The notes under the pieces are model-generated. The model was not told where the DNA came from and ran no database searches. It saw nothing but the letters and a program-made list of their open reading frames with translations. Of a stretch of 64,000 bases of DNA, positions 7,608 through 43,507 are shown piece by piece. A program made the position numbers and the translations under genes. Within the stretch, counting starts at the first letter, position 1. Every line of letters begins with the position of its first letter. Where the stretch lies: the NCBI GenBank assembly GCA_000004695.1, contig CM000154.2:2592001-2656000 (forward strand). The letters are read 5' to 3'. This DNA comes from Dictyostelium discoideum (taxonomy: Eukaryota).

Positions 7608-8671
7608 AGAAAAAAAAGCAAATAATTAAATGAGAAAAAAAAAAAAAACGATAATAAAATTATAAAAAAAAAACGATAATTAAATTATAAAAAAAGTAAA
7701 TAATAAAATTAAAAAAAAATGAAATAATAATAAAATGAGAAAAACCGATAATTTTTTTTATTTGGTAAATATTAATCAAAATCATATTTTATTGTTGTTT
7801 TAGTTTTTTTTTAAAGAATAAAATACCTGTTAAAATGAAATAGAAAAATTAGTAATCAATTTATATGTATTTTTTTTTAGTTTTTTTTTAAAAAAAACAC
7901 CATTTTATTGTTTTGGATCAGAGTTTTTGGCTTAATTAAAAATTAAATCTTATCTTGTCAATCACAGTCGTGTCGGACGGGGAAAGAAATCATCATCTAA
8001 ACAATAAAATAGTTTCTTTTTTAAAAAGTGTTTGAAACTTACAAGAAAAAGCAAAAGAAAGGACCAAGAATTGAAAGAACACCTCAAAGATAATAAAAGA
8101 AACTGAAAAAAAGACTCAAAGTAACCTAAATAAATCTAGAAAATTAATAAACAAAATTATATTAATATATTACTTTTATATTTTTTTAAATAAACAACCC
8201 AGTTAAATAATATAATAATGGGTATAAAATGTATTTATTAATGTTGTATGGTCAGAAGCAAAACTGGCGTGTCTTGTAAATCCGAATCATCATTAAGATT
8301 GCAGACTGGGGCGGTTGTCAATCATCATTCCAAAAACAAAAAAAATAAATATACACATAAATAATAATACTATTTATAACTTACAATTTGTTGTTAGTTG
8401 TGAATGAAATATTTTTTTTTTTTTTTTTTCTTTTTGTTGAAAGGAAAAAAAAAAAAAAAAAACTTTGAAAAAAAAAAAAATAAAAAAAAAAAGTAAAAAA
8501 TAAAAAAAAAAAAAATCACGAAAAAAGAACGTTATTCACGCATATTGTTTTTTTTTTTTTATTTTAATTTTTTTAATTTTTTTTATTTTTATTATTACTT
8601 TTTTTTTTTACTAAAAATAAATTTATTTTTATTTTTATCTATTTTTATTTTTATTTCTATTTTTTTACAAT

Positions 8672-39993: not shown

Positions 39994-40460
39994 GGTAATA
40001 CTCTGGAATTACAAATATTCTAATTAGCACATTTACACCACAATAATAAATTAATATTATATAATTGTGGTTTTTTTTTTTAAACTTGTTTAAAAAAAAA
40101 AATGTAAATGAGGAGTGGTCAGTCGTTCCTTAATTAGGTTGAGAGCACATGTCTGGCTCTCCAACTTTCCCACTTTAACTGATCACAGCACTAATTAATC
40201 ATTAATTAAATAATCAATTAATTAAAAGATTTGGCTTCAAATGACCTGAGTACAAAGAAAATTTAAAAGAATTTAAACATCTACATATCCTATAAAAAAT
40301 TTAATAATTTTTTTTTTTTTTTAAATAGAGATTTCTAAAGAAAAAAAAAATATATCTATAAAATATAGGTGTGATGTTTTCTTTTTATGATTCTTTGGAG
40401 TAAAAATCTTTTTATTACTCTTTTAACCCTATTTTTAAAAATGATAATAGTAAAAAAAAA
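39994..40460 (+). repeat. Mosaic-conserved repeat of about 450 bp, copy 1
   Basis: It shares the following blocks with copy 2: ggtaatactctggaattac, tattctaattagcacatttac, gtaaatgaggagtggYcagtcgttYccttaattagg, catgtctg, tccaactttcccactttaactgatcacagcactaattaatcatta, tttggcttcaaatgacctRagtacaaagaaaatttaaaagaatttaaacatctacat, and gtgtgatgtWttctYtttatgattctttggagtaaaaatctttttattactcttttaaccct. Confidence 0.6.
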
Positions 40461-41493
40461 TATGGATAACTTTATAAACTTGGAAATAAAAATTCGTTTT
40501 TACCTATAATAAAAGAGAAAGAGATAAAAAGAGAATTTAAAAAAAATTAGTACATACTTTTTTTTATATTTATTTATTTATTTAGGTATTTTATTTATTA
40601 GAGAATATTTTTTTTGGCTATTTATATTAAAACCTTTTTAATATAATAGTAAATCGATACTAAATAATATTATTTTAAAATGAACATTTAAAAAAAAAAA
40701 AAAAATAATGGTATTAAAAATAAAAAAAAAATAAAAAAAAATAACAAAAAAAAAAAAAAAATAAAATAAAATAAAAATATATTTAAATAAAAATAGAAAA
40801 TAAAAATAAAAATAAATTTCAATGGTTAATTGTGACAAAAAATCCTATTACCCCCATTTGGTAATGTAAAAATTTTTTTTTTTTTTTTTTTTTTAATGTA
40901 GAAATAAAAGATAAAAGGGTGTGATAAAAAAAAAAAAAAAAAAAAAAATTAAAAATTAAAAAAAAATTAATGGAATACAACATTCAAATCAAATTTTTAT
41001 AAGATAATAAAATTAAATTTAATTATCAGCCACCCCTAAGGGGTGTTTTTGTTTTTTTTTTTTTTTTTTTATTGTAAGAGATATTATTTTAAAGTAACCA
41101 AAAATATAATTATTAAATAATGTTTAACTTATTTAATTTATTTTTTTAATGAAATAGAGTTAATTTTGGAGTCCATAAAAACTGCCCATATAAAATAAAT
41201 AAAAAAAAAAATAAAAATAAAAATAAAAAACCTATAAACTCTCAAGAGTTTTACTCCATACTTGTATAATTAAAAATAAAGAATAAAAAAAAAAAAAATT
41301 TTGGATTTTATGAGATGGAAATTTTATTAAAAATAAGAGAGTCCCTATTCCTAAAAAAAACAATTAACGGTCAATAAATATTTACTTGAATGAGAGGTTT
41401 TCCTTTTTTTTTTTTTTTTTTTTTTTTTTGTTTGTATTAATTAAATTATTTTTTTTTTTTTTTTTTTTTTTGTTTTTTTATTGTTTAAAAAGA

Positions 41494-41932
41494 GGTAATA
41501 CTCTGGAATTACTATATTCTAATTAGCACATTTACTCTACAAAAATGATTAAATGATTGTAGTTTTTTTTTTTTTTTTTTTTCATTTAAAAATAAAAAAA
41601 AAAAAAGTAAATGAGGAGTGGCCAGTCGTTTCCTTAATTAGGATGAAAATACATGTCTGATTTTCCAACTTTCCCACTTTAACTGATCACAGCACTAATT
41701 AATCATTAAATAATTTAATGAAAGACTTTGGCTTCAAATGACCTAAGTACAAAGAAAATTTAAAAGAATTTAAACATCTACATAACATAAAATATTATTA
41801 ATTTCACTCTAAATTAAATAAAAGTAAAAAACAATAATAATTATAGTAGTGTGATGTATTCTCTTTATGATTCTTTGGAGTAAAAATCTTTTTATTACTC
41901 TTTTAACCCTCTTTTAAATAATAATAGTTAAT
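41494..41932 (+). repeat. Mosaic-conserved repeat of about 450 bp, copy 2
   Basis: It has the same orientation as copy 1 and lies 1.5 kb downstream. Conserved blocks are separated by divergent AT-rich spacers. Confidence 0.6.
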
Positions 41933-42492
41933 AAAAAAAAACACATTATTTGTACATATTTGACCTAAAATTAAAAAAATGAAGAAAGAGAAAAAAAAAA
42001 AAAAAAAAAAATGGAAATTAGTAAATTTAATTTATAAACTAAAAAAAAAATACCTTTTTAATAATCTCTCTCTCTTTTTTTTTAATTGACTCTTGCTTGT
42101 TTGTCAAATAAAAAATAGTTAAAATGAAAAAAAAAAAAAAACATTTATTGTGATATAAACTTTCTCTTTTTTTTTTTTTTTTTTAATTTTATTTTAATTT
42201 TATTTTAATTTTTCTGTTTTTTATTTTTTTATTTTTTTTTTTTTTTATTTTTTGTTATTTTTTTTATAATAACAATGATATTATCGCCACCACACATCTC
42301 CTTTGGGAAATTTAAATTAAAATAAAAAAAAAAATAAATAAAAAAAATCTTTTTCATAAATATCTTTTTTATTTTTATTTTTCTGTTTTTATTTTTTTTT
42401 TTATTTTTTTTTTATTTTTAATTATTTTTATTTTAAATTTTTTTTTTTTTTTTTTTTTTTTAATCTTATCTTTCACCAATTAAAATGTGATC

Positions 42493-43507
42493 TTATTTTT
42501 TAACAATTTGAACAATATCTTCATCTGCTAAAACGTGATCCTTACCACAACGTTGAGGGTTATGTTTAGCTGAAGAACCCCAAACCAAAGCACTAAATTA
42601 AAATTAAAAAATAATAAATATTAATAAATTAATAATTATATTTATGATAATAATAAAATAATAATAATAAGCAATAATGATTTCATTTGTGTGGTGTATT
42701 TTTTTTTTTTTTTTTTTTGTGTGTGGTAATGGTAGTTGAGTGTGTATTTAAGTGTGTGGATAAAAATTAAATTTTTAAAAAAAAAAAAAAAAAACTTACT
42801 ATCTAAATTGTCTAATAATTGAATTATGAATATGATTACAAAAAGTTTCAATTGAAGCTTCTTCACCACCTCTAATGACGACTGGTTCATTGTAATCTGG
42901 AATGAGACCTTTTGGTTTAGTGTAAACTCTAATCAATTTTAAGTATTCCCAAATTTTATCGAGGAGGGCATCTAAATTCCATTCCAAATGAGAAGAGATT
43001 GGAACATAATGAGGAATTTTATCTAAAAGGTCCAACTCTTCGATAGAGATAGCATCGATCTTATTTAAAACGTAAATACATGGAACGTAGATACGATTGC
43101 CTTCAATGACATCGATGAATTCATCCACTGTACAATTTCCACGTAAAATCACATCTGCATTGTGAATTTTATATTCTGCACAGATTGCTTTCACAGTTTC
43201 ACTATCCAATTGGGTTGGATTGACATTTGGTGTATGTGAAAAGTTAATACCACCCTTCTCCTTCTTTTTGAATGTGATTGGTGGTGGTTGTTTATTCAAT
43301 CTAATACCAAAACCATCCAACTCTCTCTCTATAATCTTTTTATGTACCAATGGTTTCATTGCATCCAATACAATTAAAATAAGATTACATGTTCTACCAA
43401 CTGCAATAACTTGTCTACCTCTACCTTTACCATCTTTTGCACCTTCAATAATACCTGGTAAATCTAATAACTAAAATATATATATTATATATATTAATTT
43501 CAATTTA

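Follow-up and report, generated by a model that had tools for sequence, protein, structure and literature searches.

Two adjacent Dictyostelium lncRNAs probably share a paralogous, structured RNA domain of ~445 nt

The repeat pair and its host transcripts

Two neighboring stretches in a 64-kb segment of Dictyostelium discoideum chromosome 5 (the whole segment analyzed here, hereafter the window) raise the question of what has kept parts of them nearly identical and let the rest diverge. In line with the original prediction of two ~450-bp repeats in the same orientation and ~1.5 kb apart, they are direct copies, located at positions 39990–40438 (copy A; chr5 ~2,631,990–2,632,438) and 41490–41918 (copy B) and listed without a strand, with a start-to-start spacing of 1480–1504 nt. 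Global alignment over 526 columns gave 88% identity, and the conserved blocks are 93.9% identical, with 16 substitutions in 264 columns. The seven near-identical blocks that had been described were recovered (~9–62 nt, 95–100% identity), but the spacers, which had been called unrelated, align at ~70% identity with many indels (69.7%, 28 gap columns). The most divergent parts of the repeat are homopolymer-rich, and the five-fold difference in substitution density between blocks and spacers is also seen in the spacer parts that are not homopolymers. The expectation that the blocks are GC-richer than their surroundings clearly holds for the central block only (41%, with a window mean of 23%); the others have 25–28%. 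The three long blocks occur twice each in the window, where no occurrence is expected, and neither BLAST nor a covariance model found a third copy of the repeat there. The conserved unit also includes the block GAUUUGGCUUC.

The two boundaries of the unit differ. On its left side, the similarity between the copies falls to background immediately (z of -1.0 and 1.3) and the flanks are not alignable. On its right side, the similarity continues for ~35 nt, through a conserved flank (40441–40470 at copy A) to a common A9 run (40452–40460 at copy A and 41933–41941 at copy B), and is weak further out. This run, which reads T9 on the minus strand, could be a T-stretch of a minus-strand promoter or an A-tail on the plus strand.

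Coding exons were ruled out as an explanation. As predicted, there is no long open reading frame (none of more than 40 aa overlaps either copy), a 45-nt block that is invariant between the copies has stop codons in 6/6 frames, the block ends are without GT/AG, and the indel lengths are not divisible by three. Strings from the unit had no match in the literature searched, and when metagenome, viral, and prokaryote collections were scanned for exact patterns, only two chance matches were returned, both in GC-rich coding DNA. The closest protein-database match of the neighboring DRG protein (DDB_G0289317) has 69% identity.

Both copies are covered by published transcript models. The offset between window and chromosome 5 coordinates (2,592,000) was set with the snoRNAs CD2 and CD13, and the DRG stop codon and three annotated genes agree with it. 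Copy A is contained in CUFF_4344_1/DDB_G3972875 (39300–40700; chr5 2631300–2632700; single exon, 1400 nt; PMC5295588 S4, S6), and copy B in CUFF_4345_1/DDB_G3969847 (40935–42291; chr5 2632935–2634291; single exon, 1356 nt; PMC5295588), so that each copy lies within its own member of the D. discoideum intergenic lncRNA catalogue. Both models carry the authors' plus-strand label. As described in the available part of Rosengarten 2017 (G3; PMC5295588), this catalogue comprises 621 intergenic lncRNA models, built from rRNA-depleted, strand-specific RNA-seq. That part of the paper does not report paralogy or structure for the two models, mentions secondary structure for tRNAs only, and describes insertion mutants, which had no phenotype, as the only functional test of lncRNAs. 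The correlations of the two paralogues with their neighboring genes over development differ (0.50 and 0.90 versus -0.21 and 0.04; PMC5295588). The original prediction of unannotated small transcripts therefore has to be replaced by lncRNA models of ~1.4 kb that are already catalogued. Since these models are three times as long as the unit, the unit may not be a separate transcript.

Substitutions and base pairing

The substitutions that separate the two copies were compared with their predicted pairing. Within the blocks, 10 of the 16 substitutions combine into five double changes at which base pairing is kept (one in the closing helix P1, one in helix P7, and three in the junction hairpin J3). 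None of the other six disrupts a pair: four are at unpaired positions, and two produce G-U pairs when the minus strand is read. Only 0.30 doubly changed pairs would be expected at random, and five were reached in 0/100,000 permutations (P<1e-5). Outside the blocks, a variable hairpin (CCACAAU/CUACAA) contributes a sixth compensatory pair. Pair counting on the RNAalifold structure gave 116 pairs, with 100% of cells paired and eight pairs changed on both sides; when the partners were slid by 1–3 columns as a control, 0–2 such pairs were obtained. The same core architecture was found in copies A and B when each was folded alone, and all blocks are mutually complementary. The MFE z-scores are -8.0 (copy A) and -5.3 (copy B) on the minus strand and -5.9 and -3.3 on the plus strand, as compared with -0.9, -1.3, +0.8, and +0.5 for four neighboring segments of the same region. 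Since only two sequences are compared, the covariation rests on six events, and the fold was derived from the same two copies that show it. The substitution pattern is that produced by selection on RNA base pairing.

The same pattern bears on two explanations that do not involve a functional RNA. A regulatory module acting at the DNA level, i.e. a common promoter or enhancer whose blocks are conserved because factors bind them, would be consistent with the conserved blocks amid variable AT-rich DNA, which look like clustered binding sites, and with the T9 run and TATA-like box that lie next to copy A on the minus strand. However, binding sites keep their sequence, and covariation between positions 10–440 nt apart is not expected of them, nor is the mutual complementarity of the blocks explained. 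In addition, the unit is part of the transcript models and does not precede them, and the proposed check for a DUSE-like upstream element found no DUSE ([AT]CCCA[ACT]AA) on either strand between 37272 and 43854; an internal TCCCACTT differs from it in the last two bases. We regard a DNA module as highly improbable. Of the two possibilities raised in the original prediction, functional RNA is thus supported by the compensatory substitutions and the RNA-seq transcripts, and a shared promoter module is insufficient, because compensatory changes link positions up to 440 nt apart.

A fairly recent neutral duplicate could also diverge unevenly if low-complexity AT tracts undergo slippage and substitution at a fast rate, with template-switch correction mimicking compensation. 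Template-switch repair of quasi-palindromes can mimic compensatory change in short hairpins, so such an origin is conceivable for short hairpins such as J3, which contains 3/6 of the compensatory pairs, but it is less likely for P1, because the strands of P1 are 440 nt apart. The homopolymer-rich character of the most divergent parts fits a neutral duplicate as well. Against it, the five-fold difference between blocks and spacers includes spacers that are not homopolymers, compensation is also seen between positions that are 70 and 440 nt from each other, the left flanks, which have the same composition, cannot be aligned, and neighboring segments do not show the excess folding of the unit. 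Neutral divergence therefore appears very unlikely.

Predicted fold, strand, and interpretation

In the predicted fold, P1 would join both ends of the unit. After it would come the short hairpin H2, the long hairpin H3 with its variable tip, a three-way junction, and P7, which would bear AT-rich expansions. The conserved blocks would correspond to helix strands and junctions, and the spacers to hairpin tips and linkers. In copy A, P1 pairs 39990–39995 with 40428–40433 (AAUAGG/CCUAUU in the minus sense) and can be extended to 9–12 bp using flanking A and U residues. In copy B, it pairs 41490–41495 with 41908–41913 (AAGAGG/CCUCUU), so a U-A pair is replaced by G-C in a compensatory change that spans ~440 nt.

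These paired ends can also be viewed as the terminal inverted repeat of a mobile element. Two insertion or copying events would then have placed a discrete ~480-bp element here (a MITE-like element, a SINE-like retroposon, or a solo LTR pair), whose structure helps it to propagate or is a relic, and the lncRNA models would simply read through it. The 9–12 bp inverted repeat at the unit ends, the sharp boundary on one side, the resemblance of direct repeats 1.5 kb apart to LTRs, and the common A9 run at the end of the plus-strand 3′ flank, as a possible A-tail, all agree with this. However, the terminal inverted repeat covaries between copies A and B, and the mosaic divergence with compensatory substitutions is unlike neutral LTR or MITE decay. 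There are only two copies in 64 kb, which are adjacent, no ORF remnants are present between them, and the candidate target-site duplications are weak AT-rich matches only. An LTR or TRIM element in particular was rejected, as the ends are AATAGG..CCCTATT rather than TG..CA and neither copy has a tRNA-like PBS or a PPT beside it. Overall, we consider a mobile-element origin unlikely.

Hairpin H2 (GAGUAA/UUACUC; 40398–40420 in copy A and 41878–41900 in copy B) does not differ between the copies. The long hairpin H3 (40253–40397 and 41750–41877) has a conserved stem of ~22 bp in three segments, CAAAGAA/UUCUUUG, AAAAGAA/UUCUUUU, and ACAUCACA/UGUAGAUGU, and a variable, AT-rich tip of 70–80 nt. Its fold was recovered independently in both copies, and on the minus strand one A-to-G change yields a G-U pair. 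The geometry of H3, in which the arms are conserved and the tip varies, would also fit a microRNA or siRNA precursor that is diced, but neither the arm sequences nor the coordinates are listed in the supplementary miRNA tables of two studies on D. discoideum/Amoebozoa, and this reading would account for only one third of the unit. Such a precursor is hardly to be expected here.

The three-way-junction domain (40114–40174 in copy A and 41617–41678 in copy B) is formed by helices AGUGG/CCACU and AGUUG/CGACU and by hairpins GAGAGC..GCUCUC and CCU..AGG. One of these hairpins, J3 (40141–40161 and 41645–41665), contains three compensatory pairs, with a stem of GAGAGC/GCUCUC in copy A and GAAAAU/AUUUUC in copy B. 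The invariant 45-nt block (40160–40204 and 41664–41708) contributes strands to the junction helices and also contains a small palindromic hairpin (CUGAUCAG) as well as UAAUUAGU, a sequence able to pair with 40021–40028. Helix P7 (CAUUUACA/UGUAAAUG; 40030–40110 and 41529–41613) surrounds a U-run/A-run hairpin and the variable hairpin, and one of its pairs is A-U in copy A and U-A in copy B. In the variable hairpin (40038–40070, CCACAAU..AUUGUGG, in copy A and 41537–41562, CUACAA..UUGUAG, in copy B), a C-G pair is replaced by U-A in a compensatory manner, and the loops are unrelated.

Folding energies favor the minus strand, both for the alignment (RNAalifold, -68.2 versus -53.4 kcal/mol) and for single sequences (MFE for copies A/B, -105.2/-95.6 versus -96.4/-76.5). 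Moreover, the central U-G pair of helix AGUUG/CGACU on the minus strand becomes a C-A mismatch on the plus strand. On these structural grounds, the minus strand is somewhat favored as the functional strand of the unit, opposite to the plus label of the published models. This disagreement points to a possible problem with strand labels in a widely used Dictyostelium lncRNA catalogue.

We put the probability at roughly two in three that the unit is a paralogous structured RNA domain of ~445 nt that is under selection and embedded in two adjacent catalogued lncRNAs. The mutations in the ~445-nt core leave its folded shape intact, so it very likely functions as a structured RNA, one of a previously undescribed type. 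The domain would act as RNA, most likely either as a protein-binding scaffold within the lncRNAs or as a stable ~450-nt RNA trimmed to P1. A bolder proposal, which we treat as speculative and rather unlikely, is that the unit is the excised mature form of an unrecognized dictyostelid class of ~450-nt structured RNP RNAs with two differently expressed paralogues, perhaps a missing RNA partner (a guide or chaperone for one of the rRNA 2′-O-methyl sites to which no snoRNA has been assigned, or some other RNP component that is still an orphan). What is new is the kinship and fold of the two lncRNAs; the lncRNAs themselves were already known. To our knowledge, real base-pair covariation has been seen in very few lncRNAs of any organism. 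Hundreds of Dictyostelium lncRNAs have been catalogued, and this pair supplies a defined 445-nt lncRNA domain with a testable fold, in an organism in which double knock-outs are easy.

Comparison with known RNA families

In agreement with the earlier statement that the blocks match neither U1–U6 and 7SL nor the tRNA consensus, a search of 39400–42800 against Rfam 15 found no family at the gathering threshold or at E<=10 except two chance CRISPR-repeat matches (18–19 bits), a tRNA/tmRNA scan found nothing near the unit, and the 131-nt central block alone gave one 12-bit chance match at E<=10. Several individual families were also considered and rejected. RNase P/MRP RNA was rejected because the CR-I-like GUGGGAAAGUUGG on the minus strand has neither a complementary CR-V strand (P4) nor an Rfam match. 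The box A-like UACUCAGGUCAUUU of U3 is present without C′/D or B/C boxes or an Rfam match, and the Alu-like UGUAAUUCCAG of SRP likewise without an Rfam match. The Dictyostelium telomere repeat is AG(1–8), and the unit has no C/U-only template for it, so telomerase RNA was rejected as well.

The plus strand of the central block (40103–40191 in copy A and 41606–41695 in copy B) could instead be read as a box C/D snoRNA hosted by the lncRNAs, with the other blocks aiding its processing. It contains, in both copies, a candidate C box AUGAGGA (one deviation from RUGAUGA) and a D box CUGA 68 nt later, within the 50–100 nt expected of such boxes. Its ends could pair in a short stem, UGU/ACA, and it has an internal hairpin. 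AUGAGGA is the accepted C box of D. discoideum snoRNA OR8, the host lncRNAs are labeled plus, the snoRNA survey by design left out candidates within longer transcripts, and two rRNA 2′-O-methyl sites, 17S-Am1469 and 26S-Am2547, are still without a guide. A C/D guide should form 7–15 bp that place a mapped 2′-O-methyl site at the fifth position upstream of box D or D′. However, the predicted target of the D guide CCCACUUUAA is AAAGUGGGA, which we take to correspond to yeast 25S ~2459–2468 (a placement checked against four known sites), and no methylation has been mapped at this position in yeast or at the corresponding 26S position in D. discoideum. The context of 26S-Am2547 is GCCAAAUGCCUCG, which the guide does not match, and an snR13/U15-type guide for this site was discarded, as the published duplex for the neighboring Gm2554 shows the true sequence. 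E. coli genomes, scanned as a proxy for universal rRNA complementarity, gave no match, and no C/D family was matched at E<=10, even in the 131-nt search. A box C/D snoRNA should be expressed as a discrete RNA of 66–113 nt, and the unit is absent from the 47 CD/OR snoRNAs and their coordinates. A snoRNA would also leave P1, H3, P7, and the 18 invariant bases that follow the D box on its 3′ side unexplained. We consider a snoRNA improbable.

Relative to the Dictyostelium box C/D snoRNAs (DdR/CD/OR; Diesend et al. 2022), the unit's plus strand has a similar C-like box, D box, and terminal stem at snoRNA spacing, and clustered snoRNA genes with AT-rich spacers, such as DdR2 and DdR13 in the same window, resemble it superficially. 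However, no discrete small RNA is known from the unit, and its conserved helices reach far past snoRNA size. Class I/II and other DUSE-driven dictyostelid ncRNAs are also lineage-specific, have a closing stem of 5′ and 3′ ends, and show compensatory evolution of their stems between paralogues or species. Class I/II RNAs are 42–65 nt long, however, with the motif CCTTACAGCAA (located after the 5′ stem in Class I) and a DUSE ~63 bp upstream, features that the unit does not have; the Class I motif CTTACAGC was not found in the whole window. RNase P/MRP RNA, 7SL, and the telomerase RNA core are similar to the unit in size (300–450 nt) and in having a closing helix, conserved junctions, and lineage-specific, AT-rich tip expansions, but the unit is without an Rfam match (E<=10), Sm site, H/ACA box, or DUSE. 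When compared with the rest of the Rosengarten 2017 set, the two host models are likewise single-exon, AT-rich, and intergenic, but here one third of each model is formed by a common domain with compensatory substitutions.

The repeated unit and its genomic setting

The repeated structured RNA domain of ~445 nt (hereafter, the unit) is discrete, duplicated, transcribed and non-coding, and the substitutions between its copies preserve a multi-helix fold. The two direct copies, A (window positions 39990–40438) and B (41490–41918), are spaced by ~1.5 kb and are located in a 3.1 kb interval flanked by convergent genes: a FERM-LRR gene (end 39367) and the DRG GTPase gene DDB_G0289317 (minus strand, chr5 2634493–2636111), the last exon of which ends at 42496. 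All seven conserved blocks of the original prediction are present, and the three long ones each occur exactly twice in the window (0 expected). The spacers, which had been described as unrelated, align with ~70% identity and 28 gap columns; overall, identity between A and B is 93.9% in the blocks and 69.7% in the variable parts. The proposed GC-richness of the blocks is evident for the central block (41%; the G+C content of the window is 23%) and not clearly so for the others. In agreement with the absence of a long ORF noted earlier, none of >40 aa overlaps either copy. A third copy was not found in the 64 kb, either by BLAST with 8-nt words or with a covariance model of the central domain with filters off. 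Exact 20–21-mer matches to unit blocks in a phage contig (L001 6060–6080) and a bacterial MAG (L002 6785–6804) are located in GC-rich coding DNA and are therefore chance matches.

On the low-coordinate side, the similarity between A and B ends at P1, the predicted helix that closes the unit ends (flank z-scores of -1.0 and 1.3). On the high-coordinate side it runs on for ~35 nt, up to a common A9 run (T9 on the minus strand), and is weak past it. The one-sided stop at P1 and the end near A9 indicate that the unit is a discrete segment of ~480 bp rather than the recognizable portion of a tandem duplication of 1.5 kb. In the surrounding region, the ORFs of DDB_G0289315 (27707–28714) and DDB_G0289311 (30703–32476) are both on the minus strand. 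A low-complexity tract between the FERM and LRR coding parts (37052–38345, including a run of ~76 T at 38013–38088) probably splits transcript models through unmappable sequence. An isolated GC-richer island at 42269–42315, ~200 nt past the DRG stop codon and where the second lncRNA model (40935–42291) ends, may be the DRG 3′ UTR or a lncRNA boundary.

Predicted fold and the pattern of substitutions

The blocks are mutually complementary, and one architecture was obtained both from RNAalifold on the A+B pair and from separate MFE folding of each copy. In the minus sense, it comprises P1 (AAUAGG/CCUAUU, extendable to 9–12 bp), the H2 hairpin (GAGUAA/UUACUC), the long H3 hairpin with three conserved stem segments and a variable tip of 70–80 nt, a three-way junction (AGUGG/CCACU, AGUUG/CGACU and the hairpins GAGAGC/GCUCUC and CCU/AGG), and helix P7 (CAUUUACA/UGUAAAUG), with a U-run/A-run hairpin and a variable hairpin inside it. 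Two long-range helices, UAAUUAGU/GCUAAUUA and UACUC/GAGUA, are possible. All AT-rich spacers are hairpin tips or linkers in this predicted fold. Folding z-scores were -8.0 (A) and -5.3 (B) on the minus strand and -5.9 (A) and -3.3 (B) on the plus strand, compared with -0.9, -1.3, +0.8 and +0.5 for four neighboring stretches of the same intergenic region, two of which include long A and T runs.

The blocks contain 16 substitutions in 264 reliably aligned columns. Ten of these form five double changes that keep pairing (A to B: U-A to G-C in P1; A-U to U-A in P7; and G-C, G-C and C-G to A-U, A-U and U-A in hairpin J3 of the junction). Of the others, two alter one side of a pair and produce G-U pairs in the minus sense, four fall at unpaired positions, and none breaks a pair. 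When 16 substitutions were placed at random, the mean number of double-changed pairs was 0.30, and five was not attained in any of 100,000 permutations. A sixth compensatory pair is found in the variable hairpin (CCACAAU/AUUGUGG in A and CUACAA/UUGUAG in B). Across the whole structure, 232 of 232 cells (100%) are paired and 8 pairs are altered on both sides, compared with just 0–2 when the 3′ partners were slid by 1–3 columns; all of these covariation counts come from two sequences and from a fold derived from those same two. Given the predicted fold, this pattern is evidence for selection acting on base pairing of the unit.

Transcripts over the unit and their strand

From rRNA-depleted, strand-specific RNA-seq across development, Rosengarten et al. 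2017 described 621 intergenic lncRNAs (PMC5295588). According to files S4 and S6 of that study, two single-exon models, both labeled plus, each contain exactly one copy: A lies in chr5 2631300–2632700 (window 39300–40700, 1400 nt) and B in chr5 2632935–2634291 (window 40935–42291, 1356 nt). Flank comparison found no similarity between the models outside the unit, and the copy A flanks have no excess folding. Correlations with neighboring genes are 0.50 and 0.90 for one model versus -0.21 and 0.04 for the other (PMC5295588). The models are separated by 235 nt of homopolymer-rich sequence, so both may be parts of one longer transcript. The CUFF identifiers in S4 disagree with those in S6 for the same coordinates (for 2631300–2632700, S4 gives CUFF_4135_1 and S6 gives CUFF_4344_1; PMC5295588), and the S4 identifier column appears to be scrambled. 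The unique part of the first model contains GC-richer islands at 39673–39758 and 39860–39938, which lack excess folding (z +0.8 and +0.5) and whose short minus-strand ORFs (75 and 51 aa) have no Pfam match. Between the copies, within the second model or at its border, two plus-strand GC-rich hairpins are followed by a long T run (41031–41070, CACCCCTAAGGGGTG + T-run; 40846–40893, ATTACC-CCCATTT-GGTAAT + T21); a terminator-like scan gave 2 sites (0.3 expected), one of them at 41031–41045.

Structure favors the minus strand. The RNAalifold consensus energy is -68.2 kcal/mol there versus -53.4 kcal/mol on the plus strand, and the MFEs of the single copies favor minus by 9 and 19 kcal/mol. Both one-sided block changes are G-U when read on minus, and the mid-helix pair of AGUUG/CGACU is U-G on minus, where plus would have a C-A mismatch. 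However, this structural argument is not decisive, because three G-U pairs are gained on plus, two in the outer helix of the junction and one in H3. The published labels of both repeat-bearing models are plus (PMC5295588). All three other lncRNA models in the window that overlap clear coding sequence are labeled opposite to the ORF strand: 29211–29873 (chr5 2621211–2621873, plus) overlaps a minus-strand FNIP-repeat ORF (29155–29811, Pfam 8e-49), 33190–37024 (chr5 2625190–2629024, minus) a plus-strand FERM ORF (33515–36328, 2e-20), and 38105–39507 (chr5 2630105–2631507, minus) plus-strand LRR ORFs/exons (38443–39367). These three models may represent antisense transcription of unannotated genes or pseudogenes; alternatively, the files may invert the strand of novel single-exon models. 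If the labels are inverted, both repeat-bearing lncRNAs are minus-strand, and the 207-nt overlap of 38105–39507 with 39300–40700 is an ordinary convergent 3′ overlap. On balance, we somewhat favor the minus strand for the unit RNA.

Proposed working and comparison with known elements

The unit would act as RNA. Protein or RNA would contact it at the 45-nt block and the invariant junction, and its AT-rich tips would be neutral expansions. Its working form could be a module within the 1.4 kb lncRNAs or a P1-closed core of ~450 nt after trimming.

No Rfam family was found for the unit, including in a 131-nt search at E ≤ 10, and neither a DUSE nor a Class I motif is present at it. The supplements of two miRNA studies contain neither its arm sequences nor its coordinates, and it is not one of the 47 CD/OR box C/D snoRNAs (PMC8817022). 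The window contains one tRNA-Arg gene and two minus-strand snoRNAs, DdR2 (CD2; 7917–7999) and DdR13 (CD13; 8252–8331), listed at chr5 2599916–2599999 and 2600248–2600331, both minus (Diesend et al. 2022, PMC8817022, Table S5). These positions place the window at chr5 2,592,001–2,656,000 in unchanged orientation, and the annotated genes DDB_G0289317, DDB_G0289311 and DDB_G0289315 bear this out. On the minus strand of 7800–8520, a GTAAGT is located shortly upstream of each snoRNA, with a GC-richer stretch between the two, and they look like intronic snoRNAs in a host gene that is spliced and possibly non-coding; in the 2022 survey, every snoRNA except CD38 was called intergenic (PMC8817022).

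Read on plus, the central block looks similar to a C/D snoRNA (AUGAGGA, 68 nt, CUGA, terminal UGU/ACA). A role as guide for the orphan site 26S-Am2547 was rejected, the site context being GCCAAAUGCCUCG according to the published duplex for neighboring Gm2554. The guide would target AAAGUGGGA, without mapped methylation there (site placed by correspondence with yeast 25S). Elsewhere in the unit, GAUUUGGCUUC (40226–40236, plus; 41723–41733 in B) is complementary to 8 nt (AGCCAAAU) of 26S rRNA including the guide-less methylated A2547, and to only 7 nt in copy B; with neither an upstream C box nor a proper D′ box, the match is probably coincidental. A C/D snoRNA reading of the central block also leaves P1, H3 and P7 unexplained. 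An LTR, TRIM or MITE is an unlikely reading in view of the termini, the lack of a PBS or PPT, and a divergence that is mosaic and compensatory.
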